A DNA stretch of 64,000 bases from positions 12,131-76,130 of IMG/VR virus record IMGVR_UViG_3300023179_008905; one strand, written 5' to 3'. This document shows positions 11,907 to 51,531 of this stretch, piece by piece. Made by a program: the position numbers and the translations under genes. Under the pieces are notes generated by a model. It worked only from the letters and a program-made list of their open reading frames with translations, made no database searches and was not told where the DNA came from. Origin of the DNA: a virus. Positions within the stretch are counted from its first letter, which is position 1. Every line of letters starts with the position of its first letter.

Positions 11907-12620
11907 ATGAGATATAAAAGTACTAAGATCTTAGAATTAGGTAGTTGTGCATTTAGACAATGGAGAGCTGTACATAGTCATTGTAAGTTTATTCATGGCT
12001 ATAGATTAGTTGCTAAGTTTTGGTTTAGTTGTGATTCTTTAGATGATAAGAATTGGGTAGTAGATTTTGGAGGGTTAGATGAACTTAAGAAAATTTTACA
12101 AAAACAATTTGATCATACATTATGTGTTTCAGAAGATGATCCTTTGTTAGAAGGATTTAAATCATTACATACTGCTGGTGGTTGTGATTTAAGAATTATG
12201 CCTAAGGGAGTAGGTATTGAAAGGACAGCTGAATGGTGTTTAAATGTTTCTGATGCGCATGTAAGACAGTTAACAAATAATCGTTGTTGGGTTGAAAAAG
12301 TTGAAGTATGGGAACATGAAAAAAATTCAGCTATAGCAATTGCAGAAAATATTAATCATAATCATGTTAATTTGAGCAATGCATTTAATGTTACAAATAA
12401 TGTTACAACTGGTAATTCTGAAACTGTTGCAACAACATTGCAACCACCTATTAATCAGGTAAGAACGTTTTTAGACGACGTACAGCAAGAAACCGGTGTT
12501 AATGTTGCTAATGTTTTAAAACAAGTTCCTCAGCAGCAAGTACCGAGACCAGCTAATGTAGGTAATAAGACGTCTTCAGGTTTTTCGAATTTATTTGGCG
12601 GTACAAGCTGGGGAATGTAA
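11907..12620 (+). CDS. queD: 6-carboxytetrahydropterin synthase with low-complexity C-terminal extension
   Basis: CAFRQWRA.HSHCKFIHGY, WVVDFGGL, FDHT, VEVWEHEKN. Confidence 0.9.
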   Translation: MRYKSTKILELGSCAFRQWRAVHSHCKFIHGYRLVAKFWFSCDSLDDKNWVVDFGGLDELKKILQKQFDHTLCVSEDDPLLEGFKSLHTAGGCDLRIMPKGVGIERTAEWCLNVSDAHVRQLTNNRCWVEKVEVWEHEKNSAIAIAENINHNHVNLSNAFNVTNNVTTGNSETVATTLQPPINQVRTFLDDVQQETGVNVANVLKQVPQQQVPRPANVGNKTSSGFSNLFGGTSWGM

Positions 12621-13358
12621 TTAGATTTTTGGCTTAATTGTTGCTATTACTTTTACTATAAATTTAAGTAATTTACTTCTAGTAATATCATCTTCTGTAA
12701 AATGAAAAACATGTATTCCGTGATCCTTACTATCTTGTGAATCGAAACCACCCATAATATTTTTAAATCCGGATTTTTGAATATCTGATTGCAAAGAATC
12801 TCCTATAACAAACAATTTACAATTTTTTCCAAACCTAGTTAAAATCGTAACTAATTCACTATGCTCTAAGTTTTGTGCTTCATCAACTATTACAACACTG
12901 TTTGCAAAAGTTGCACCTCTCAAGAAATTAACAGGCGTACATTTTAAGTATTCATTTTCAAATAACATATTTGTTATTTGTTTACCTACTAATTCATCAC
13001 ATTTTTCTATTAATGGAATACTCCATGGCTTAAACTTATCGTCTACCTCACCAGGTAAGCTTCCTAGTTTACGTGTAGCAGATTCTACTATACTCCTTAT
13101 ATAGATTATCTCATCTATCTTTTTTTCCTTTAACATAGACAAAGCAACATATGTTGCACAGTATGTTTTCGAAGAACCAGCAGGCCCGTCACAGAATATA
13201 ATATGGGTATCGTCTTGAAAAGCCTTGTCTACAAAAGCTTTATGATGTTCATTAAAATGAAATTTCTGCTCTACTTTAAAATTCAGAAAAATATCTGATT
13301 TTATAAGCTTATTATCTTCGCGAGCAGCTTTTTTTAGCTGTCTGTCCTTCTTAGACAT
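12621..13358 (-). CDS. phoH: PhoH-family ATPase
   Basis: GPAGSSKT, LGSLPG, FLRGATF, VIVDEAQN, LTRFG, GDSLQSD. Confidence 0.95.
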   Translation of the reverse strand: MSKKDRQLKKAAREDNKLIKSDIFLNFKVEQKFHFNEHHKAFVDKAFQDDTHIIFCDGPAGSSKTYCATYVALSMLKEKKIDEIIYIRSIVESATRKLGSLPGEVDDKFKPWSIPLIEKCDELVGKQITNMLFENEYLKCTPVNFLRGATFANSVVIVDEAQNLEHSELVTILTRFGKNCKLFVIGDSLQSDIQKSGFKNIMGGFDSQDSKDHGIHVFHFTEDDITRSKLLKFIVKVIATIKPKI

Positions 13359-32371: not shown

Positions 32372-34003
32372 GTGTTTAGTAGATATATTCAGCATTTTCC
32401 TAAAGAGTATAATCCAAGCACTAGTCAGGTAAAACTAATACGCGGCGTTGAAAAAGCATTTAATAGTGGAAAAAAATTTGTTATTTGTTGTGCTCCAACA
32501 GGAACAGGTAAAAGCTTTTTAGCAAAAACGCTATCCGGATTAAGTTCGTCACCTACTAGTAAATTTGTTAATAATATTGAAACCTACTCTGCTTTTAAAC
32601 AAGATTTTTCCGGTAATTACATAAATGAAATAGATTGTATATCTCAACCACCTTTTGGTACTTTTGCGCTAACGATTACCAAGTCTTTACAAGATCAATA
32701 TTTAAACCTTTTTCCTGATACCGATATATTAAAAGGCAAATCGAACTATCTTTGCGATATAGACCAAAATTTTGATGTTGAAACCGCTCCATGTGTTCTT
32801 GTTCCAAAAATAAAAGAAGATTGCTGGGAGAAAAATCGCTGCCCTTATTTTAATGCTAGAAATTCTGCAATACTTTCAAAGTTTGCAGTTTTAAATTATA
32901 AGATGTTTTTATCCTTACCGAATCATGTAAAGAGAAAAAACTTTATTATTTGTGATGAGGCATCTGAATTAGAGGATGAATTAGTAAAGCAATTTTCTGC
33001 TGAAGTAAATTATGATAGACTTCGTGCTTACGGTATAGACATATCTACCCTTTTAACAGAAAATAGAGATAAAACGCGTTCATGGCTTTATGAATTAATA
33101 TTTTTAATAAGTGAAAAGATAAATCAAACTATTAATAAAGTCAATAAAAAGCAAAGAACATTCTCACAGCCGGAAAAAATAAAAATACAATACCTTAAAA
33201 ATGTTCATAGCGCTCTTACTACTGTAGATACATTATGGCGTGACTGCGAATTTGTTATTGATAGAGATGTAAAAAAGGTTTTATTTACTCCTCTTAAAGT
33301 AAGCAAACTTACAAAATATATTTTTGATTTTGCAGATAATATTCTCTTAATGTCGGCAACTATTATTGATCATAAAAATTTTGCAAAAACGCTAGGTATA
33401 ACAGACTATGAATATGTAGAGGTGGAAAGCGGGTTTGATCCCGAAAAATCTCCCATCTATGTATCATCAAAAAATAAATTAAACTATAAAAACTTAACGC
33501 ACGTTTTACCAGCTATATGTGATCAAATTAATACTATTATCGAACATCACAAGACAGAAAAAGGTATTATACATACACATTCCCGAGATATTACAAATTT
33601 TATAAAACTTAGGTTGGGAAGTAATAAAAGATTTTTATTTCGTGATGAACAGGCTAATAATGAAAACATCTTAAAAGAACATTTTAGTACAGACGAGCCA
33701 ACTATCCTAGTATCACCTTCCCTTGCATTTGGGGTTGATCTAAAAGATCATTTAGCGCGCTTTCAAATTGTAATTAAACTTCCGTTTCCACCTCTTTCTT
33801 CAAAATATATTAAAAAGCTTTTTGAGGTAGATAAAAATTGGTATGAAAATAAAATGCTTAACGCACTAGTACAGGCGTGTGGAAGAGCAACACGAAGTAA
33901 AGATGACTTCTCTACGACATATATTTTGGATGGAAACGCTTCTAATACATTAAAGCGTGTAAAATCTAAGCTTCCAAAATACTTTATTGACCGTATATGT
34001 TAA
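32372..34003 (+). CDS. DinG/XPD-family SF2 helicase
   Basis: APTGTGKS, LKGKSNYLC, Fe-S-type Cys (PC...DC...CPYF), DEAS, MSAT, GVDL, QACGRATRSKDD. Confidence 0.9.
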   Translation: MFSRYIQHFPKEYNPSTSQVKLIRGVEKAFNSGKKFVICCAPTGTGKSFLAKTLSGLSSSPTSKFVNNIETYSAFKQDFSGNYINEIDCISQPPFGTFALTITKSLQDQYLNLFPDTDILKGKSNYLCDIDQNFDVETAPCVLVPKIKEDCWEKNRCPYFNARNSAILSKFAVLNYKMFLSLPNHVKRKNFIICDEASELEDELVKQFSAEVNYDRLRAYGIDISTLLTENRDKTRSWLYELIFLISEKINQTINKVNKKQRTFSQPEKIKIQYLKNVHSALTTVDTLWRDCEFVIDRDVKKVLFTPLKVSKLTKYIFDFADNILLMSATIIDHKNFAKTLGITDYEYVEVESGFDPEKSPIYVSSKNKLNYKNLTHVLPAICDQINTIIEHHKTEKGIIHTHSRDITNFIKLRLGSNKRFLFRDEQANNENILKEHFSTDEPTILVSPSLAFGVDLKDHLARFQIVIKLPFPPLSSKYIKKLFEVDKNWYENKMLNALVQACGRATRSKDDFSTTYILDGNASNTLKRVKSKLPKYFIDRIC

Positions 34004-42690: not shown

Positions 42691-43605
42691 TTACTGTCTT
42701 ACCGTCTTAGTAAAATACTTAAACTCGTCTATTAAAGCCGTATCTAATAAGCTATAGTTACTAGCTCTTGTTGGATTAATATCGATACCACCACGTCTTA
42801 CATATAGACAACTTACTACAAGCTCTTCTGGTTTAAACAATCTAAACAACCGCATATAAATTGTCTCACAAATCTCTTCATGAAAATGACATTCATCTCT
42901 AAATGAGACAATATACTGTAAAAGAGATGTCTGATTAATCTCATACTTTCCTTTATAATGAATATAAACATCGCCCCAATCAGGTTGTGAAGTTACCCTA
43001 CAATTACTTTTTAATAAAGCAGAATGAAATCTTTGTACTCTAGATTCAGGGATCTTTATTGCAGATAAAATAGAAGGATCCTCAGTATATGATTTAGATT
43101 GTATCATTGTAACATCAATATTATTTTCTAATGTAGGGTAGTCTTTATTCGAAAACACCGGGGGATAATACAAATCATCCGATACTGCTGCAGCAGATCT
43201 TACATAGACCTTCACATCTGTTTCCAAAAGATTAGATAGATCTCTTGCAATTGTATTTTGCAATTCATTTAAAACTTGAATCATATTACCTTTAAATACT
43301 TGCATGTTAAAAGAATTCATATATAGCTTAATAGATTTTGATTCAACTATATAATGGTTTTTACAAGGATAAACAATTTTAGCTATAGCGGCTATAGGCA
43401 TTCCTTCTGCAGTCAGGCACGATACTTCATATGCATTCCAAATATCATAACCACCAAACGGGGCGTTTTCATCAGTTATATCTAAATGCTTTCTATTATT
43501 AATTCTTGGTTCACGGACTAACAGAGAAGGGTCGTAAGTCGACTTATAACCAGTTACCTTACCTAAATGCTTTGAAATGTTACTATTATCTAATACCTTG
43601 TTCAT
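42691..43605 (-). CDS. queF: NADPH-dependent 7-cyano-7-deazaguanine reductase (two-domain type)
   Basis: GYDIWNAYEVS, IVESKSIKLYMNSFN, LLKSNCRVTSQPDWG, FHEEICE, RRGGIDINP; ATG 43605 preferred. Confidence 0.93.
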   Translation of the reverse strand: MNKVLDNSNISKHLGKVTGYKSTYDPSLLVREPRINNRKHLDITDENAPFGGYDIWNAYEVSCLTAEGMPIAAIAKIVYPCKNHYIVESKSIKLYMNSFNMQVFKGNMIQVLNELQNTIARDLSNLLETDVKVYVRSAAAVSDDLYYPPVFSNKDYPTLENNIDVTMIQSKSYTEDPSILSAIKIPESRVQRFHSALLKSNCRVTSQPDWGDVYIHYKGKYEINQTSLLQYIVSFRDECHFHEEICETIYMRLFRLFKPEELVVSCLYVRRGGIDINPTRASNYSLLDTALIDEFKYFTKTVRQ

Positions 43606-44170
43606 GTAGTTTAATTTTAATCTGTTCCATTCGTTCTTCAACTGTTCCTTTTAAAAACACTACTCTTTCTCTCCATGGGTGTTGATTAAGATAATAATTT
43701 TCATACTTATCGATAATTGCATCTCTAAACTCTATATCAATACTCCTCTCACCATCGCTAACTAAATTAATCTCATGAGGATTCGGATAAAATATAATAT
43801 CATACTTAGTAAAAAAATTATGCCAATAATTTTTCGCTTGATCGTATGATAATCTTGAAACCCGTCCCTTTTCAAAAAAGTATTCTGTATACACTAACCC
43901 ATCTAGTAAACATCTATCATGTACAGTACCCTTACACCATCCACCCATACTACCGCATGTAAACAAATTCTTTAGTTCCTCGTTTATTATTAAAAGCTGT
44001 GTTACATCACTTGCACCCTCTTCATTAATCGGTACGTTACATTCATCTCTTATTTTCCTAGTAACTTCGTTAATATAAAAGAATTTATCAAATATACCTC
44101 CACTGCTTCTCATTGTCTTAAGCAATGTCGTTTTACCAGAGCACTGAGGACCTGTAAACGTAATATTCAT
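43586..44170 (-). CDS. P-loop nucleotide kinase-like protein (AAA_28/NadR-like)
   Basis: FTGPQCSGKTTL, HDRCLLDGLVYT, DGERS, GTVEERM. Confidence 0.75.
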   Translation of the reverse strand: MNITFTGPQCSGKTTLLKTMRSSGGIFDKFFYINEVTRKIRDECNVPINEEGASDVTQLLIINEELKNLFTCGSMGGWCKGTVHDRCLLDGLVYTEYFFEKGRVSRLSYDQAKNYWHNFFTKYDIIFYPNPHEINLVSDGERSIDIEFRDAIIDKYENYYLNQHPWRERVVFLKGTVEERMEQIKIKLHEQGIR

Positions 44171-44319
44171 TTCTTATTCCAATCAACACCAAATAAAAGA
44201 TTTTTTAATATCTTTATTTCTTCTAAAAATACTTTATTTTCTTGCTCAAGCTCAGCCAAAAGAATCTTCAATCTCTTGACTTCATCATTCTTTTTTCGAA
44301 AAATATCTAATAAAGACAT
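44167..44319 (-). CDS. 50-aa coiled-coil protein (not in ORF track)
   Basis: MSLLDIFRKKNDEVKRLKILLAELEQENKVFLEEIKILKNLLFGVDWNKK; ATGA overlap with the kinase gene; own promoter. Confidence 0.6.
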   Translation of the reverse strand: MSLLDIFRKKNDEVKRLKILLAELEQENKVFLEEIKILKNLLFGVDWNKK

Positions 44320-44324
44320 ACTAT

Positions 44325-44353
44325 AGTATAAATGACTTTTTATTATTAATCAA
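44325..44353 (-). promoter_or_regulatory. sigma70-like promoter TTGATT-N17-TATACT
   Basis: -10 ends 5 nt before ATG 44319. Confidence 0.6.
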
Positions 44354-44354
44354 G

Positions 44355-44702
44355 CTATTTACACCACTTTTTTCTTTTCACAATTTCAGCAATTATACAG
44401 TATACCGATGTATCACTAAATGCATCAAAGATAGGCTCATTAGCAGATTCAAACGTCTTCTTACGCAATACTAAATTAATTAAACGCTGAATTTTATCGT
44501 TAAGTCGAACTACGATTGCAGAAATAGAGGCAATAATATCTTCTTTCTTGTGTAAATCAGATCCCAGGCTTATGTTGTGCGGCCCGTAATCAAATTGCTT
44601 CTTACAGAATGTTTCGTATTGCTCTTTTTGAATCTTTTTAAATTCCTCGCAAGTCTCAGGATACGTAGACTCTACACTTTTAATATAATCTTCCGGGTTC
44701 AA
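44355..44702 (-). CDS. DUF1599/Nmad1 nucleotide-modification-associated protein
   Basis: FCKKQFDYGPHNI...VRLNDKIQRLINL...EPIFDAFSDTSVYCII. Confidence 0.8.
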   Translation of the reverse strand: MNPEDYIKSVESTYPETCEEFKKIQKEQYETFCKKQFDYGPHNISLGSDLHKKEDIIASISAIVVRLNDKIQRLINLVLRKKTFESANEPIFDAFSDTSVYCIIAEIVKRKKWCK

Positions 44703-45670
44703 ATTCTTACTCCGTAACCAATCTTATTTAAATTAAGAGCATTTAAATTGCAACCCCCAGCATAGCTGATTGCGCTCTGAAGATCTTGAGTTATTTCTAA
44801 TAGCTTTTCATCGTAAGTAAATGAATCGGTTTCCATAAGCTTCATTGTACCTTCTATGTTCTTTTTATCAATCTTATTATGTATACTAGCAGAACCGTAA
44901 TACTGTTTATACCGTCTCCCGTTAGTATCTTTTACAACCGGTGCAGGGCTATCCGTACAAGCAGCAAATATAGATCCGCACATAACCATACTAGCCCCAG
45001 CGACTAGCGCTTTAGCTATATCACCGTTGCAGCGAACTCCACCGTCTGCAATAATAGGTACATCAATATCTGAATTATAATTATTTGCACACTCCATAAC
45101 GCAGCTAAACATAGGATATGTAAACCCGGTTTTGTCTTTAGTAGTACATGCATGACCACCACCGATACCAACTTTAACTGCATCAGCACCTGCAAGGGCA
45201 AGATATTCAACACCTTTACGTGTAGCTACATTACCAGCTATTATCTTTGTTTCAGGTAGTTTATTTTTAATAAACTTTACTTGGTCAGCAACTTTAGCAT
45301 GATGCCCATGAGCCACATCAATTGTAATAAAATTTACTCTTAATTTATGTCGAGATATATTGTCAATTAACGCTTTATCTTTTTCCTGTATCCCTACACT
45401 TATAGATACATAATTGAAAAAAGCTTCATTTGCATCTCTTACAAACGCAAAAATATCGTGATCAAACCGATGCATAACATAAAAGTAATATTTCGAATCT
45501 AACGCTTGACAAATATCAAAATCTATGCAGCATTTCATATTTGCTGGGATAACTGGAAGACGAAAATTTTTATCTAAAAACTTTACCTCTGTACTAATTT
45601 CTGCCCTCGTCTTAACCGAATTAAAATTAGGCTTAAGAAAAACGTTTTCGTAATGCAGAGAAATGTCCAT
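44699..45670 (-). CDS. guaC: GMP reductase
   Basis: PVIPANM, YVMHRF, TIDVAHGH, IAGNVAT, VKVGIGGGHACTT, IIADGG, YYGSAS, DLQSAISYAG; no CBS domains. Confidence 0.9.
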   Translation of the reverse strand: MDISLHYENVFLKPNFNSVKTRAEISTEVKFLDKNFRLPVIPANMKCCIDFDICQALDSKYYFYVMHRFDHDIFAFVRDANEAFFNYVSISVGIQEKDKALIDNISRHKLRVNFITIDVAHGHHAKVADQVKFIKNKLPETKIIAGNVATRKGVEYLALAGADAVKVGIGGGHACTTKDKTGFTYPMFSCVMECANNYNSDIDVPIIADGGVRCNGDIAKALVAGASMVMCGSIFAACTDSPAPVVKDTNGRRYKQYYGSASIHNKIDKKNIEGTMKLMETDSFTYDEKLLEITQDLQSAISYAGGCNLNALNLNKIGYGVRI

Positions 45671-45671
45671 A

Positions 45672-46241
45672 CTAGCGATTTAAAATATTATATGCTTTAA
45701 AAAAGCTTTTCCACAAATCAAATGCAACGTCATGTAAAATATTATAGACTTCATTTAATGTTTTACTCTCTATCGATACCCCTTGACTCATCATAATTTC
45801 ACCCTCATCAACTTCAGGCACTACTTTATGAATAACGCAACCAGCTAATTTATAGCCATTTACAAACGCTCTCTCCTGAGGATTAAACCCTTTTAGAGAC
45901 GGGTACTTGTCAATAAGCCCGGGGTGTAGATTATATATTTCATATTTTTCACATATTTCTTTTGGAACAATACGTAAATAGCCGTGTAAAGTTATAACTG
46001 GATTTTTAAATTTAGATAATACTTCTGTATAATCTTCTAAAGAAGGTTTTAGAGGTAACATATACCATATAGTTTGATTGAGTTTATGCTCTCTAAAAGT
46101 AGTTGTACGAAGCAAATCTTTATTTACATTATCCGTTGTAATTTTATTAGTAACGATAGCATCAGGATAAACTTCTAAGGCTTTACAGAGATTATTAATT
46201 TCTGTACCGGTCTGTGAAAAAAACGCTACCCAAGGTCTCAT
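45672..46241 (-). CDS. PurN-like formyltransferase, candidate preQ1 formyltransferase (DpdN-like)
   Basis: FFSQTGT, LHGYLRI, YNLHPG, GCVIHKVVPEVDEGEI; in an operon with TGT-like gene and near queF. Confidence 0.8.
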   Translation of the reverse strand: MRPWVAFFSQTGTEINNLCKALEVYPDAIVTNKITTDNVNKDLLRTTTFREHKLNQTIWYMLPLKPSLEDYTEVLSKFKNPVITLHGYLRIVPKEICEKYEIYNLHPGLIDKYPSLKGFNPQERAFVNGYKLAGCVIHKVVPEVDEGEIMMSQGVSIESKTLNEVYNILHDVAFDLWKSFFKAYNILNR

Positions 46242-47050
46242 CTATATAAAATGCGCTTAAACATTTTAACATTATAATTTAAAATTTCCAATTGATCTGG
46301 TGTAAATTGATGCTCTATTAAATCTGCTAATTTTGTCTTAGGTTTAGTCTGTAGACCGTATTCTGCATCATAACGCATATTATGAATAGCTGCGACTACA
46401 GGGTTACTCGTATCACAACTTACAATATTATATACATTTTTATCAACATAAAATCTAAACTCTTTTGCAAGAGAGCAGCCTAATAAATGATGAGGCTTAT
46501 TCCATTCCCATAACCCTGATTCAATTAAATCTGTAATAAATCTCTGTCGTCCTGAACAAAACCTTTCTAGCTCAGTATTACCCTCACCTATTGTTTGATA
46601 ATAACTAAAATCAAAACTTATAGCTACCATGTCAGCATCAAATGACATAAAACGATAACAGTTTTTTAATTCTTGCCATGTCTTACCCTGTACTGCTCCA
46701 ATAGCTTTAGTCTGAAATGATGATTTTAAATCCTTAGCTTTATCTCTAAAGCTTAAAAAACTCACCATCGTTTCTTGCGAATTTTCCAAAACATCTGGAA
46801 CAATAAACATACTAGGCTCAAGATCTTTTGCGGCTTGATAAAACATTTGCGGATCAAAAGCTTTTCCAAGCTCAAATATTGAATTATCGAGCAATACTTC
46901 TCTGTTATATGTATTTTTGGAGGCTTTAAAAAAATTATAATATTCTGGATATTTTTGAAAAAGATGAACTAATGCATAGTCAAAATCATTATATTTTCTT
47001 GATTGTTCTAATAATGAAATAGGAGATTCATGAGATACTTTCAATAGCAT
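46238..47050 (-). CDS. TGT-fold 7-deazaguanine transglycosylase-like protein (DpdA3-like)
   Basis: LLDNSIFELG, PDVL, GAVQG, HHLLG, SCDTSNP correspond to TGT/DpdA barrel motifs. Confidence 0.7.
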   Translation of the reverse strand: MLLKVSHESPISLLEQSRKYNDFDYALVHLFQKYPEYYNFFKASKNTYNREVLLDNSIFELGKAFDPQMFYQAAKDLEPSMFIVPDVLENSQETMVSFLSFRDKAKDLKSSFQTKAIGAVQGKTWQELKNCYRFMSFDADMVAISFDFSYYQTIGEGNTELERFCSGRQRFITDLIESGLWEWNKPHHLLGCSLAKEFRFYVDKNVYNIVSCDTSNPVVAAIHNMRYDAEYGLQTKPKTKLADLIEHQFTPDQLEILNYNVKMFKRILYR

Positions 47051-47085: not shown

Positions 47086-49935
47086 ATGAAGTATCCAAAA
47101 TACTATGGTCATTATCTAGGTATTGTAGTTCAAAATAATGATCCTGATAAAAGGGGCAGAGTTAAGGTGTTTGTACCACATATCTCTCCAACTGTTTATA
47201 AGAAATGGAATGAAGCTGTAAAAGACAAGAAATTTAAATTTATAGGTAAAAACGTAGGTAGCGATATAACAGATGTAACGGATGATTTAAAGAAAATTCT
47301 ACCATGGGCAGAAATTGCAGCACCGCTGGCAGGTGAAAGTAGTAGCGGTAGATTTAATGCTTATAAAAATATTGGAACAATTAGTGATTCGAGTAGCTTA
47401 AGCGGTTCTATTTCTAATACACAAAACAGCGAGATAGATGTTTCAAAATTAGATTATTTTTCTCCAAATCTTGACAACATAGGTGAAAAGCCAGGTAATA
47501 TATTTGATATATCCTACTACAAGCTGAAAGATGCGTTCAGCGTTCCAGCAGAAACAAATGTTAATAATGCTAATAAATTTAGCTATAATTATACACCAGA
47601 ATGCTATAGTAACTGCGCGCGTGGTTCTTTTCCTCTTTTAAACGTAGGTTCTCACGTGTGGGTATTTTTTCATAATGGTGATGCTCTTAAGCCTATTGTT
47701 TTTGCTGCAGCATTTGGTACCGAAGATTGGAAAAGTATTTCAAATATTCCTACTACTAATGCAATAGAACTATCTGCAGCAAAAAGCCCGGGTGTAGATT
47801 ACCCCGGTGCTTATGAAAATAGAAGCTCTGTTTCTAGTCAAGAATACGATATTAATGTTGAAACTTATAGGAATAAATATGTAATTAATCAAAAAGGCGG
47901 TACTATATCATTTGTAAATACTGATAATAGAGAAGCTTTAAAACTAACACATTATTCTGGTTCATTTAAAGAGTTTAATAATTTTACTAATACAGAATTA
48001 GCTACTAATAATGATCAAAAATTAGTTTTAAATGATCAATTTTTAACTGTAAGAGGTTCCAGAAACGAGTATACACAACTGGATTACGATAACGTTACTA
48101 AAGGAGATGTGTATAGAAAAATAGGAGATTTAAATAGAAATTTACATTTACAATGGAAATCTATAGTTCAAGAAATAGCTGATGTAAAACAATTATTTGA
48201 TATTCAAAGAGCAGAAAAAGCGGTTTCTGAAAATGGCATGCTCTTAACGTCACCGCTTCAAACACAAGCTTCTGGTGGGTTTGATAACTGCCCTGTGTGT
48301 AATAAAAATATAAACTCTTATTTTTCAGTTAATAATTCATATAGTAATAATTTTAATTTAAAGCTTTTTCCAAGTCTAGCTGATAGCGGTGGTAATTATA
48401 TATTTGGTAATACGCTAACACCAGATGGTATAATGGGTAGCTTAGACTTTGTCGGCTCACTAGGCGCACCTCAATTTGGTCCCCCTACACAGGTTTTAGG
48501 TAATTCAGGTGATGGTTCTTCTGATCCTAATAAACCAGGAACTATATTTGGGGTTACTTGCCCTGCATGCGGTGGAACAGGAAAAAGCCCTAGTTCACTT
48601 GGTGGTAATTGGCCACCCGATCCTAAAAAACAAAATTTAAATAATTTAATTAAAAGTAAAATACAAGATCTTGCTAAAATAGAAAAAGATATGGGTCTAG
48701 GGGGTAGTGAGATTATAGAAATTACAAAACATAAAATAGAAACGATCGGCACAGTAATGAACGATTTTGGTAGCATAAGAGTAGATATGAAAGGTAAAAT
48801 GTATATCTCAGATGTACAGGTGGGTAAATACGGAACATTTTATAATAGAAAACCTTCACCCCTCGTAGAGCTAGTACATGTAGATGATCTGCCTGGTGGT
48901 AATTATACTCTAAACGTTTGTAATAGATATAATGTAATGGTTGGAGCTGGAGGCTTAAATCTTAAATCTTACGGACCAGTTAACATTAGTGGATCTCTTA
49001 CTAACATTGCAGGCAAGCAAGTAAATATAGGTAGTGAACTAGAAACCAATATTGATGGTGGTCGTCGATTATCTCTAGTTGCAGATATCATAAGCTTGAG
49101 GCAAAGAAACAAAGAGCAAGTAGTTGTAGAGGGGTCATTAGGAATTACAAATAATTTAATAGTAGCGGGCGGTCTGCACGTAGAAGGTGAGTTTACTGCT
49201 AACCACATTACTATGCCTACTGAAGTACAGGCTACGGAGGAGACAAATGTATTTGCTGCAGCTACAACAGATGAGAGTAATATGAATGGTAAAATAATTG
49301 GATTTGCTGTTCCTCTATCAAATTATGCTACTGTTAAAAATGCTAAGGATAAATCATTTAAAGAAAACACTAAAAAAGATACCGGAGCACCTTACTTAGG
49401 CTATACTGATGCATCAGTAGTCGCTGGTCGGCTTAAAAAAGATGAAAATATAGGTTATTTAAAATCTGGGCAAATTATAGGCTATATAAAGCAAACAGAC
49501 ATTGCATCTATAATTGCACCATCAACCGGTGGTGCGTGTTCCTCTACAGTAAACATTCCCATCTATTGCTCTACAAATATTGCAACAGATACAGATGTAT
49601 CGGTAAAAGCATCTAGTACAGGTAGCTCTACCAACTCTAAGGACACGCCAGTATATGGATCAGGACCGGGTGGTAATGCAGATCTTGCAGGCGGTACAGT
49701 TAGAGGCAGTATTAAGGGTGCAGATACAGGCGCTGGTGGTAAAGATCCCATGCAAATGCCTATAGTCGTGTATGGTTCCGGTCGTGATAGAGATAGTATT
49801 TACGTAGAAAAACACTCGCACATGTTTAAAGGATTACCTTCTACTCTTACAAATACTAATGCACAGACTAGAGAAAAAATATCTGGCAAGCTAGCCCCAC
49901 TAAATTCAGAAGTAGTTGCAAATTACAAGAAATAA
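47086..49935 (+). CDS. baseplate hub/central spike, gp5/VgrG-like
   Basis: YLGIVVQNNDPDKRGRVKVFVP OB-fold, VGSHVWVFFHNGD, LTHYSGSFKEF, beta-helix repeats, C-terminal HSH. Confidence 0.8.
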   Translation: MKYPKYYGHYLGIVVQNNDPDKRGRVKVFVPHISPTVYKKWNEAVKDKKFKFIGKNVGSDITDVTDDLKKILPWAEIAAPLAGESSSGRFNAYKNIGTISDSSSLSGSISNTQNSEIDVSKLDYFSPNLDNIGEKPGNIFDISYYKLKDAFSVPAETNVNNANKFSYNYTPECYSNCARGSFPLLNVGSHVWVFFHNGDALKPIVFAAAFGTEDWKSISNIPTTNAIELSAAKSPGVDYPGAYENRSSVSSQEYDINVETYRNKYVINQKGGTISFVNTDNREALKLTHYSGSFKEFNNFTNTELATNNDQKLVLNDQFLTVRGSRNEYTQLDYDNVTKGDVYRKIGDLNRNLHLQWKSIVQEIADVKQLFDIQRAEKAVSENGMLLTSPLQTQASGGFDNCPVCNKNINSYFSVNNSYSNNFNLKLFPSLADSGGNYIFGNTLTPDGIMGSLDFVGSLGAPQFGPPTQVLGNSGDGSSDPNKPGTIFGVTCPACGGTGKSPSSLGGNWPPDPKKQNLNNLIKSKIQDLAKIEKDMGLGGSEIIEITKHKIETIGTVMNDFGSIRVDMKGKMYISDVQVGKYGTFYNRKPSPLVELVHVDDLPGGNYTLNVCNRYNVMVGAGGLNLKSYGPVNISGSLTNIAGKQVNIGSELETNIDGGRRLSLVADIISLRQRNKEQVVVEGSLGITNNLIVAGGLHVEGEFTANHITMPTEVQATEETNVFAAATTDESNMNGKIIGFAVPLSNYATVKNAKDKSFKENTKKDTGAPYLGYTDASVVAGRLKKDENIGYLKSGQIIGYIKQTDIASIIAPSTGGACSSTVNIPIYCSTNIATDTDVSVKASSTGSSTNSKDTPVYGSGPGGNADLAGGTVRGSIKGADTGAGGKDPMQMPIVVYGSGRDRDSIYVEKHSHMFKGLPSTLTNTNAQTREKISGKLAPLNSEVVANYKK

Positions 49936-50127
49936 TTATTTTTTGTTAAGCCAATCAGTTCTATGATGTGTAACCCAATCCATTAAGGCTCTCTCAAACC
50001 CCACATCATGTCCAGACCGCTCAGACATATACCATTTATTTCTTAAAATCTCTTCTCTTTCTTGAAGAAATCTTTTATAAAGATCGGTATTTTTTAATTC
50101 TAAACTTGTAGATGACAGTGAATCCAT
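49936..50127 (-). CDS. DUF4032-like small protein
   Basis: LYKRFLQEREEILRNKWYMSERSGHDVGFERALMDW. Confidence 0.7.
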   Translation of the reverse strand: MDSLSSTSLELKNTDLYKRFLQEREEILRNKWYMSERSGHDVGFERALMDWVTHHRTDWLNKK

Positions 50128-50145
50128 TACTACAATATTTATTCT

Positions 50146-50209
50146 TACACTAGTAACCTTGCAATAAATTCAAGGTTCCCACCAACCCACCCCTAGTGTA
50201 CGTCGTACA
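50146..50209 (-). other. structured intergenic element: nested stems enclosing a G-rich tract
   Basis: Minus strand TACACTAG-GGGTGGGTTGGTGGG-AACCTTG-AATTTATTG-CAAGGTT-A-CTAGTGTA; perfect 8-bp and 7-bp stems. Confidence 0.6.
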
Positions 50210-50230
50210 GTTGCTCCTTCTAAAATTTAT

Positions 50231-50458
50231 TTATTGTTGAGCGAGCTTATTTTTTAAATTATCAAATATAATTTTTTTATCGTCTAATGCTTGAGCTTTA
50301 AGTACATCTATCATTCTTAAAACAACATCTAATCTAAGCATTTTTAAATAATCATATTTTATTTCTAAACCGATACATGCAAGAAACCTTTCACAAATAA
50401 AAAATAAAACAGATAATTCTTCTTCAGTTAATTCTTTTAATGTATGGCTATAAATCAT
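50231..50458 (-). CDS. hypothetical protein
   Basis: 75-aa ORF with ATGA overlap to the nrdB stop. Confidence 0.65.
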   Translation of the reverse strand: MIYSHTLKELTEEELSVLFFICERFLACIGLEIKYDYLKMLRLDVVLRMIDVLKAQALDDKKIIFDNLKNKLAQQ

Positions 50459-51519
50459 AGTTCAATATCTTCAAAAACACTTTCAGATATATTTGTATCT
50501 CTTGCACCTATCTTGTAAGTAGAGATTTCTGTCTCTTGTGGAGCAACCTGTACTTTGCTTGAATCAAGATAACTATCTAACCATCCTGAAATTGGATTTT
50601 CTTTTTGATTAAATATCTTTTTATATCCTAAAGAACGCAACCGATTATCACACAACCATTTAGAATACCCTCCTAGAACTTCAGCGTTTAATCCTAGTAA
50701 TGACCCTTTACTAAAAAGATATTGCGCCCATTCAATTTCATTTTTTGCGGCTTGCTCGTAGAATGCATAAATTTTATCTTCACTTTTTTTAACAATAGAT
50801 GCAAACCCTTCCTTATCTTCATCGCGTAAAATTTTTATTAAATTTTGTGTAATTGCAAAATGCTGAGCTTCATCACGTTGAATAAATTTTATAATCTTTG
50901 CATTACCTTCCATTTTACCGCGATATCCAAAATAAAAACTACAGGCAAAGCTTACATAAAATACTAACCCTTCCATAACATTTACGGATAAGATACAATC
51001 AAATATTTTTTGTTTTAAATCTTTCTTTGTATCGTCTCCTAAGATTTTATCAAAATTATTTCTAATTAACTCTGCTCTACTTACAATATCTTTATCTTCC
51101 ATTATACTATCAAAAAAATTAGATGCGTCCGGGTGTACATTATTTAAGAGGTAAGAATAACTATAACTATGTATACCTTCAAACCGCTGCCATGTATTCA
51201 TGCAAATCTCTAGTTCTGGGTTGCTCACATAATCTTTTAAAGAATGAATACTTCTAGATAGCATTGAATCTCCTAAAGTTTGAAATTTTAAGTTTGTATC
51301 AAATACAAACCGCTCTTCTCCTTTAAGCTCTCTATAATCTCCTCTATCTTTTTGAAGAGATATTTCATGAGGCCACCAAAAAAATTCTTCCTGTTTTTTA
51401 AACAATTCAAAGAACGTAGGGTATTTAAATTTATCGTATCTCTGTAAATTTAAATCTTCACCAAAAAAAAGAGGCTGTTTGGTGTGATCAATGTTTTTTA
51501 TATTTAAAACAGACTTCAT
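50455..51519 (-). CDS. nrdB: ribonucleotide reductase class Ia beta subunit
   Basis: FFWWPHEI, FQTLGDS, EGIHSYSY, EGLVFYVSFA, RDEAQH, VAPQETE. Confidence 0.95.
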   Translation of the reverse strand: MKSVLNIKNIDHTKQPLFFGEDLNLQRYDKFKYPTFFELFKKQEEFFWWPHEISLQKDRGDYRELKGEERFVFDTNLKFQTLGDSMLSRSIHSLKDYVSNPELEICMNTWQRFEGIHSYSYSYLLNNVHPDASNFFDSIMEDKDIVSRAELIRNNFDKILGDDTKKDLKQKIFDCILSVNVMEGLVFYVSFACSFYFGYRGKMEGNAKIIKFIQRDEAQHFAITQNLIKILRDEDKEGFASIVKKSEDKIYAFYEQAAKNEIEWAQYLFSKGSLLGLNAEVLGGYSKWLCDNRLRSLGYKKIFNQKENPISGWLDSYLDSSKVQVAPQETEISTYKIGARDTNISESVFEDIEL

Positions 51520-51531
51520 AAGGAGGTAATA

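Follow-up and report, generated by a model that had tools for sequence, protein, structure and literature searches.

A conserved structured RNA with a putative G-quadruplex core in uncultured freshwater jumbo phages

Background

Selected aptamers provide well-documented cases of functional RNA G-quadruplexes, those in eukaryotic untranslated regions (UTRs) are debated, and to our knowledge natural RNAs of bacteria or phages with comparative support for a quadruplex core are essentially missing. The present study concerns a candidate of this kind, found on the minus strand of a stretch of viral DNA of 64,000 nucleotides (hereafter the window), which covers positions 12,131 to 76,130 of the IMG/VR record IMGVR_UViG_3300023179_008905, a 76-kb record, probably from a lake-water metagenome, with an estimated completeness of 35%. 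The element consists of an outer helix (P1) and a hairpin (P2), with a loop of four G-runs between them on one strand and a single A on the other, and it precedes a gene for a small DUF4032-like protein. A preliminary description, made from the letters of the window, had noted both stems, the 15-nt G-rich loop, the opposite A and an alternative hairpin overlapping P1, and all of these are present where it had placed them.

Several described systems come close to parts of this arrangement. G tracts of 3, 3, 2 and 3 nt with loops of 1, 1-2 and 1 nt are typical of very stable parallel quadruplexes. In phage T4, genes 38 and 25 have hairpin-bridged ('split') ribosome-binding sites, while the STAB-SD of Bacillus thuringiensis cryIIIA is a 5' site resembling the Shine-Dalgarno (SD) sequence, thought to bind the 30S subunit and protect the RNA. 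The G-quadruplex of Neisseria pilE has the sequence G3TG3TTG3TG3, one G more than the commonest variant of our element. A small RNA (sRNA) initiating in this quadruplex is required in cis for quadruplex formation (PMC3547852). In the GTP aptamer of class V, GTP completes a tetrad at a vacant quadruplex position and K+ is needed (PMC5066627), and the authors of its structure regard natural G-vacancy RNA sensors as still to be sought (PMC12718690). Moreover, in a DNA model quadruplex with the same loop layout as our element, mutations of the third tract keep GTP binding and may even raise it (PMC5159562).

Results

Conserved helices and invariant G tracts in the homologues

Homologues were collected by four routes, from loci with NrdB as the anchor, from loci with the DUF4032-like protein as the anchor, and by scanning for the pattern first in viral and also in metagenome contigs, and the working sets held 43, then 56 and finally 84-85 distinct copies. 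These copies come from IMG/VR and from lake metagenome contigs, every contig having 30-40% G+C. With the structure of the preliminary description laid on a MAFFT alignment of 44 sequences, 98.3% of the cells are paired and 11 of the 14 pairs show compensatory changes. The covariation score of this alignment is 0.71 vs 0.19 in shuffles, with none of 500 shuffles as high, and it collapses once the 3' partners are slid by 1-3 columns. A covariance model (CM) built from the alignment finds a single match, of 61 bits, both in the window and in the whole record. Re-alignment by this model gave 87 matches (85 distinct), in which pairing amounts to 97.4% and compensatory changes are again seen in 11 of 14 pairs, so that the check set beforehand by the preliminary description, conservation and covariation in related phage contigs, came out in its favour.

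Taking the helices one by one over the 85 sequences, 98.4% of the cells of P1 are paired, with compensatory changes in 5 of 8 pairs, and 96% of those of P2, where all 6 modelled pairs are compensatory and the hairpin loop is free in both sequence and length. Invariant in P1 are the closing A-U and G-C pairs and a further A-U pair. G.U pairs outnumber A.C pairs in the stems by 27:2, which indicates that the G-rich sense strand is the folding strand. It is highly probable that P1 and P2 are joined by the invariant A on one strand and by a G-tract bulge of 14-15 nt on the other.

Four G tracts in the quadruplex arrangement GGG-N-GGG-N1-2-GG-N-GGG occur in 85 of 85 distinct sequences, and apart from one exception, in which GG is changed to AG, all 11 tract Gs are invariant. 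The three tract loops are variable: T, C or A in the first; T or A, followed by T, A, C or nothing, in the second; and T, C or A in the third, with lengths of 1, 1-2 and 1 nt and never a G. Tract 3 reads GG in 84 of 85 sequences and GGG in none, though the search patterns permitted GGG, and three GGG plus one GG is the tract composition of a guanine-vacancy quadruplex. It is the Gs that selection is seen to hold, the loop bases being left free, in the protein-anchored set as well, where 46 of 80 loci have a strong CM match and a tract substitution appears in only one. These Gs also lack a Watson-Crick partner; neither a C-rich complement nor a pseudoknot or antisense partner was found within 150 nt. 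The conserved core contains an indel of 1 nt, situated between G tracts. A protein-coding micro-ORF after the conserved GAAGGAG motif upstream of P1 was also considered, and is excluded by this frame-breaking indel, by inconsistent start codons and by a spacing of 2-3 nt.

The unusual character of the G tract, remarked on in the preliminary description, was confirmed by its single occurrence in the 64-kb window and its absence from all of 100 shuffles. Plain RNAfold does not choose the fold of the element, and the stability of the region is ordinary (z = +0.67). With the G-quadruplex term of ViennaRNA the minimum free energy structure is exactly P1, quadruplex (G4) and P2 (-19.8 vs -15.7 kcal/mol), and such G4-aware folding places the quadruplex in the bulge, as P1-G4-P2, in 55 of 56 instances, the gain averaging 5.4 kcal/mol. 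The conservation pattern and the energy model together make it fairly probable that the bulge is a parallel G-quadruplex with loops of 1, 1-2 and 1 nt, wedged between the two helices. The fixed GG in tract 3 would point to a core of two tetrads, or to one of three tetrads with a vacant corner; the invariant A might cap the core or fill this corner, or alternatively an external guanine could do so.

A late-type box, an SD-like site and variable flanks

Translation in this phage appears to proceed largely without SD signals. GGAG or GAGG stands before 2% of the phage genes, which equals the background and marks them as genes without SD sequences, and the frequency of GAAGGAG in the window is at chance level. 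Start codons are found 5-7 nt after TAAATA/TAAGTA or TATAAT boxes; this geometry is present in about a third of the window genes, and the box-to-start spacing is 5-7 nt in 16 of 23 window genes. Examples of a box followed by a start lie at 1136, 2059, 6963, 12621-13358, 34015, 36695, 38819 and 63064. Start codons so close to the boxes, together with the lack of SD sequences, imply that leaderless mRNAs are widespread, with promoters of T4-late-like and sigma-70-like type.

Against this background the element has a peculiar head. GAAGG(A/C/T)G is found upstream of P1 in essentially all instances, with a TAAATA or TAAGTA box 5-7 nt before it in 43 of 55 relatives; the distance is 7 nt in the window, where the element has the sole combination of such a box with GAAGGAG. 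Since this spacing is that between box and ATG in the leaderless genes, the G of GAAGGAG sits at the position of the A of a leaderless ATG, and a late transcript would probably start at or next to GAAGGAG. The window continues from GAAGGAG with CAAC and TGTAC-GAC-G to P1, the SD-like site being 13 nt from P1 and P1 18 nt from the ATG. P1 is followed by AGAAUAAAUAUU without a U-tract, AGAA standing directly 3' of its 3' strand and then the second TAAATA box.

The flanks of the element differ among the relatives. Types A and D have a spacer of 9-17 nt with a segment (TGTAC, TGTAT, GTATA or GCAT) that can pair with the outer P1 5' strand, and the hairpin variants TGTAT/ATACA, GTATA/TATAC and GCAT/ATGC track the changes of P1 across the subgroups. 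In type B (12 variants) GAAGGNG abuts P1 at 0-1 nt, the start codon follows 8-10 nt after P1, and the gene's own box (GAATAAATA) is overlapped by the P1 3' strand. Type E and several others carry an outer helix (P0) of GGAGCAG(AU) with (AU)CUGCUCC and then a U-run, and several subgroups show outer helices, for example GGAGCAGAU/AUCUGCUCC, with U-runs after them. In total, a U-run stands within 16 nt after P1 in 35 of 84 copies vs a background of 10%, and within 38 nt in 61 of 84 vs 26%. Alternative hairpins, not significant individually, and P0 helices occur and would be candidates for a switch platform; the promoter-like box of the gene lies between the element and the gene.

The window has one more sequence related to the SD-like site: nrdB, with its ATG at 51519, is preceded on the minus strand by TATAAT-ATTA-CCTCCTT-ATG (51520-51527), in which CCTCCTT is a copy of the 16S anti-SD and complementary to GAAGGAG. 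Pairing between the two was considered and set aside, as it is found in the window only, is not conserved in 36 relatives and is probably coincidental.

Gene context

In the 46 of 80 protein-anchored phage loci that carry it, the element is upstream of the DUF4032-like family and on the same strand every time. Linkage to this gene holds for about 74 of 84 distinct instances, about 64 of them directly upstream and about 10 behind one inserted gene, and a different downstream gene, for Hsp20, is found in one lineage; a conserved aptamer-like core with co-varying helices thus goes together with a coherent downstream gene set, as in riboswitches. The inserted genes encode a Pyr_excise (DenV-like) glycosylase, HTH-type proteins of 357 aa beside a GIY-YIG gene, or unknown proteins of 155-167 aa, and several of them have their own TTGACA-17-TATAAT promoter of sigma-70-like type. 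The site between element and gene is an insertion hotspot (loci L404, L412, L472, L481, L010, L409, L428 and L477). The Hsp20/alpha-crystallin gene belongs to a different phage group, in which a diverged element (34-36 bits) precedes it; these copies (L196:7991-8470, also L084, L181, L128 and L093) have GAAGGAG and the same G core, with a U.G/U-A closure in place of the A-CU closure. In L225 and L238, two loci without the element, the DUF4032-like gene is preceded by GGTTCAAATCCCAGCACCTCCA, which resembles the 3' end of a tRNA gene, and then by the usual TAAATA box.

The upstream neighbour is a 75-aa ORF after nrdB in type A, to which the window belongs, and an ORF of about 400 aa in type B. 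Because this neighbour varies among the lineages, the link of the element with nrdAB is incidental. The preliminary description had put the element at the 3' end of the nrdAB transcript, which finds no support in that form: it is its own box, GAAGGAG and the DUF4032-like gene that the element keeps, and a U-tract is missing in the window. Its placement just before the late box of the DUF4032 gene was correct (Table 1).

Table 1. Features of the element and its immediate surroundings in the window
Feature	Position	Strand	Remark
Box 1, late-type promoter-like TAAATA	50228..50233	-	overlaps stop codon of the upstream 75-aa ORF; presumed promoter
GAAGGAG, SD-like	50214..50220	-	conserved upstream of P1
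Alternative hairpin TGTAC-GAC-GTACA	50197..50209	-	read directly; overlaps outer half of P1 5' strand
P1 5' strand TACACTAG	50193..50200	-	8 bp with CTAGTGTA
G-tract loop GGGTGGGTTGGTGGG, putative G-quadruplex	50178..50192	-	15 nt, GGG-U-GGG-UU-GG-U-GGG (3-3-2-3)
P2 hairpin AACCTTG / AATTTATTG / CAAGGTT	50155..50177	-	7 bp; arms 50177-50171 and 50161-50155, loop AATTTATTG
Single A opposite the G-loop (bulged)	50154	-	A in 85/85 distinct sequences
P1 3' strand CTAGTGTA	50146..50153	-	same pairing evidence as P1 5' strand
Box 2, TAAATA, late-type box of the DUF4032-like gene	50136..50141	-	8 nt before ATG at 50127-50125
63-aa DUF4032-like gene	49936..50127	-	Pfam DUF4032, E = 3e-6
75-aa ORF after nrdB/nrdA	50231..50458	-	upstream neighbour in type A relatives only

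On the other side, a 949-aa gp5-like baseplate hub protein with a Phage_base_V OB domain, encoded at 47086-49935 (+), converges on the DUF4032-like gene, an arrangement kept in nearly all relatives. Beyond it, the region 42691-47050 (-) encodes QueF (preQ0 reductase), an AAA_28 kinase-like protein, GMP reductase, a PurN-like formyltransferase and a 270-aa protein with a weak DUF6610 match. This cluster is consistent with a preQ1-derived DNA modification, and loss of N7 on the guanines of the phage is predicted. Of the genes bearing on the earlier prediction of a phage with 7-deaza-G, QueF, GMP reductase and the PurN-like formyltransferase are confirmed; a DpdA/TGT gene was not verified, the weak DUF6610 match being all that was seen. 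The DinG/XPD-like helicase that the preliminary description had placed at 32372 does have the domains Helicase_C_2 and DEAD_2.

Distribution of the element and the neighbouring protein

A cmscan of 49000-51500 on both strands against Rfam 15, with E up to 10, gave no family match, the sole hit being an unrelated snoRNA at 50859-50907 below threshold. A match to an ordinary terminator or to an Rfam family, which had been named in advance as speaking against a novel element, is therefore absent for the copy in the window. In the collection of cultured phages, neither blastn with the region nor tblastn with the small protein gave a match, and the best NrdB match belongs to a Pelagibacter phage with 43% identity. 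A pattern scan of 185,000 species genomes yielded, among the matches listed, GC-rich chance ones only. The CM found the element in none of 80 Verrucomicrobiota loci with homologues of the small protein. In each of five near-complete relatives of 157-230 kb there is a single copy. The 230-kb complete relative, the record of L137, also has a weak second CM match of 24.8 bits and 25 nt (G002:C1:175657-175681), probably a fragment or a chance match. No description of the motif was found in the searchable literature, the roughly 10,000 unnamed candidates of a published catalogue of phage RNAs (PMC10690425) not having been compared. The element is a previously undescribed structured RNA motif of uncultured freshwater jumbo phages.

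As for the 63-aa protein, its best 80 of 263 cellular homologues (L484-L563) are all from metagenome-assembled genomes of Verrucomicrobiota, namely of the groups Chthoniobacterales, Opitutales, Methylacidiphilales and Pedosphaera, and on this ground the host of the phage is probably a member of this phylum. The protein is small, helical and basic-tailed, and AlphaFold models it confidently as a bundle of four helices (pLDDT 88). A Foldseek search of this model against the PDB gave nothing below E = 1 and no nucleic-acid-binding match, a sequence search of the PDB gave no match, and in the ESM Atlas the protein groups solely with Verrucomicrobiota DUF4032-like proteins. A literature search on the function of the DUF4032-like protein found no papers.

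Discussion

What the element is and what it may do

Taken together, the element is in all probability a single-copy, phage-specific, non-coding structured RNA, a short late transcript that begins at or next to GAAGGAG and folds into a rod of two helices. We infer with good support its RNA nature, its possession of a late box of its own and its core in the form of a quadruplex-duplex junction. The structured RNA (aptamer or switch) that was among the first proposals is upheld by two co-varying helices, strand-specific G.U pairs, invariant G tracts, free loops and the lack of an Rfam match.

Regarding its role, the reading that we rank first, and hold tentatively as a possibility of somewhat under even chance, is that of a late-transcribed, cis-acting leader or terminator RNA located in front of the DUF4032-like (or Hsp20) gene. 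It is ranked so because of the tight and oriented linkage to one gene family and of the platform-like additions, namely terminators, SD-pairing helices and SD bridging. According to this model, the small hairpin upstream would compete with folding of the G4-locked rod. Once folded, the rod would terminate the transcript from box 1 where a lineage has a U-tract or an outer GGAG:CUCC helix, and where the U-tract is missing, as in the window, it would form the 5' leader of the gene. In type B, the folded rod would set the only SD-like sequence of the genome at 8-10 nt from the start codon. The element might thus tune the amount of a leadered, SD-dependent mRNA on top of the leaderless mRNA from box 2.

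Several observations weigh against this picture. The entire basis for the quadruplex is the conservation pattern and an energy model, and several of the retrieval patterns required Gs and are biased in this respect, the 80 protein-anchored phage loci being the unbiased subset. Of these 80 homologous loci, 34 are without the element. The late box of the DUF4032-like gene itself is retained, lying between the two or overlapping the element, so that the gene could be expressed independently, and mobile genes have entered between element and gene in at least 10 lineages while the element is still kept. Upstream of the copy in L090 lies a divergent gene, and downstream of it nothing but the end of the convergent gp5-like gene, so that this copy has no co-directional neighbour. 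What is more, no terminator-like site was found in 49800-50600 of the window, which offers no intrinsic (Rho-independent) terminator, and its spacings of 13 nt and 18 nt are not those of a hairpin-bridged ribosome-binding site, a geometry seen only in the 12 type B relatives. Finally, the alternative hairpin, compared with shuffled spacers, is not significant individually.

Alternative explanations

Some of these points would suit an autonomous late sRNA or ribonucleoprotein component of about 75-100 nt, acting in trans and merely adjoining the DUF4032-like gene, which we rank second and consider somewhat unlikely. Its 5' GAAGGAG would be a seed for the 3' end of 16S rRNA (as a 30S decoy or a STAB-SD-like protector) or for CUCCUUC targets, or else an optimal initial transcribed sequence, and the G4 rod would make the RNA stable or offer a surface for binding proteins, possibly the small one encoded next to it. 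An own box at promoter-like spacing is expected of such an RNA, U-run enrichment and terminal P0 helices are sRNA-typical, the downstream gene has its own box, the element is kept despite downstream insertions and stands alone in L090, another lineage has Hsp20 as a different downstream gene, each genome has a single copy, and GAAGGAG has no start codon at a usable distance. However, that about 74 of 84 instances are tightly linked, on the same strand, to a single gene family is more cis-like, and GGAG is base-paired in the P0-bearing lineages, hence not always free. In the window and in type B, where a terminator is missing, the RNA would run into the gene, and the low SD use of the presumed host group (about 19% by a crude count) weakens the decoy idea. 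Phage proteins acting on their own operators, as gp32, gp43 and RegA of T4 do, give a further model, in which the G-loop, the bulged A and the invariant P1 pairs would be recognised by a protein, the DUF4032-like one being the candidate for autoregulation. The invariance does reach into P1, as far as the A6-U63 pair four pairs from the loop, which is unusual for a plain helix, and the genomic linkage is to a small basic-tailed helical protein. Yet free loop positions with fixed Gs fit a quadruplex better than a base-specific protein site, the loci of the bacterial homologues have no element, the Hsp20-linked copies have no adjoining gene for the protein, and the predicted fold of the protein has no nucleic-acid-binding match; we regard an operator as improbable. 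A similarly low chance is given to a natural G-vacancy riboswitch or sensor, in which a free guanine compound takes the place of the missing G of tract 3. A Hoogsteen tetrad that requires N7 would then be completed by GTP, GMP, guanine, ppGpp or a cyclic G-nucleotide, and the RNA would report the guanine pool while being blind to the 7-deazaguanines made by the phage (preQ0/preQ1 derivatives). The expression of the small late protein would in this way be tied to the metabolic switch from G to deaza-G, for which the QueF, GMP reductase and PurN-like genes lie nearby.

That the element belongs to the 3' end of the upstream operon is also improbable to us. It might there act as a terminator, as a block to 3' exonucleases with the G4 stabilising the upstream mRNA, or as an insulator that keeps transcription from running on into the late gene and antisense to the convergent gp5-like gene. 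In fact the element always lies at the end of a co-directional unit just before the convergent large gene, and U-runs are enriched after the hairpin in many relatives, but the U-tract is missing in the window and in type B, the upstream gene changes while the element, box and GAAGGAG stay, and in L090 the upstream gene is divergent and leaves nothing to terminate. The invariant G tracts and GAAGGAG are likewise not accounted for by it. Least probable, and very unlikely in our view, is an element acting as DNA, in which transcription from box 1 would form an R-loop on the C-rich strand and the displaced G-rich strand would fold into hairpins and quadruplex. It would mark a site of replication initiation, recombination or nicking in the manner of pilE, only on DNA without 7-deaza-modified G. 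T4-like phages do use R-loop origins, the phage encodes a DinG-like helicase, and the strand asymmetry of the G.U pairs would also fit a displaced sense DNA strand; the geometry, with a promoter beside the G-rich non-template strand, matches that of pilE (PMC3547852). The DNA element (an origin or a modification sensor) that had been proposed along with the RNA is nevertheless disfavoured, because the stems accept G.U and not A.C and the conserved features are those of a transcription unit. G.T pairs are ill tolerated in short DNA stems, while the 14 co-varying pairs, the free hairpin loop and the invariant bulged A are hallmarks of a folded RNA. Tetrads would be impossible if genomic G is largely 7-deaza-modified, as QueF and related genes suggest. 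Besides, there is one copy with neither origin-type repeats nor an AT-rich unwinding element, and GAAGGAG and the P0 helices would go unexplained.

Significance and comparison with known systems

The element is a rare natural candidate for a functional RNA G-quadruplex, supported by 85 distinct sequences, by two co-varying helices that set its register, by invariant Gs between free loops and by a 'vacant' position that is conserved. If genomic G is replaced by 7-deazaguanine, which is probable in this lineage, a quadruplex could form only in RNA, which would amount to a built-in control. The RNA is small, about 60-95 nt, and its expression logic is unusual, with a lone SD-like site in an otherwise leaderless-looking phage genome. 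Should it be a true guanine sensor, it would be the first natural riboswitch with ligand-completed tetrads.

In its relation to translation, the nearest likeness is that of type B to the split ribosome-binding sites of T4, in that a stable hairpin has an SD sequence directly on its 5' side and, at 8-10 nt from its 3' side, the start codon, and folding would bring the two to a usual spacing. However, no conserved core is present in the T4 hairpins, which are plain stem-loops, the geometry of the window (13 and 18 nt) is unlike theirs, and unlike T4 the phage-host system here appears to use leaderless mRNAs. With STAB-SD the element shares a strong SD-like site near the 5' end without a start codon at a usable distance; that system is from a different organism group and has no G-tract structure, and in some lineages the GGAG of our element is paired. 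The locus of pilE is similar in having a promoter directly beside a G-tract with T, TT and T loops and in the transcription of a G-rich RNA, but it concerns a DNA structure in recombination without co-varying flanking helices, whereas our element has helices, a bulged A, G.U pairs and GG as its third tract. Riboswitches and other cis-regulatory leaders in Rfam likewise combine a highly conserved core, set between helices that co-vary, with a place in front of a single gene family and with variable downstream additions such as U-tract terminators and SD-pairing helices; the element differs from them by the lack of an Rfam match, by the promoter-like box that the gene keeps and by an SD sequence 5' of the aptamer instead of 3'.

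In its core, the element resembles the guanine-vacancy quadruplexes and the GTP-binding quadruplexes of the GGGNGGGNNGGGNGGG type (PMC8682790; PMC5159562), which have the same 3-3-2-3 tracts and 1-2-1 loops. What was studied in vitro there were oligonucleotides of DNA or sequences from human promoters, whereas the element is conserved by selection, set in an RNA context and flanked by helices. The class V aptamer has three helices and two bulges that contribute Gs (PMC5066627), whereas the element has two helices with all Gs in one bulge opposite a single A, and it is not a member of that class. Spinach, Mango, Chili and class V all have a quadruplex core in or beside A-form helices, arising from an asymmetric internal loop, as is proposed here for the element; they were obtained by selection in vitro, whereas the element is natural and phylogenetically conserved.

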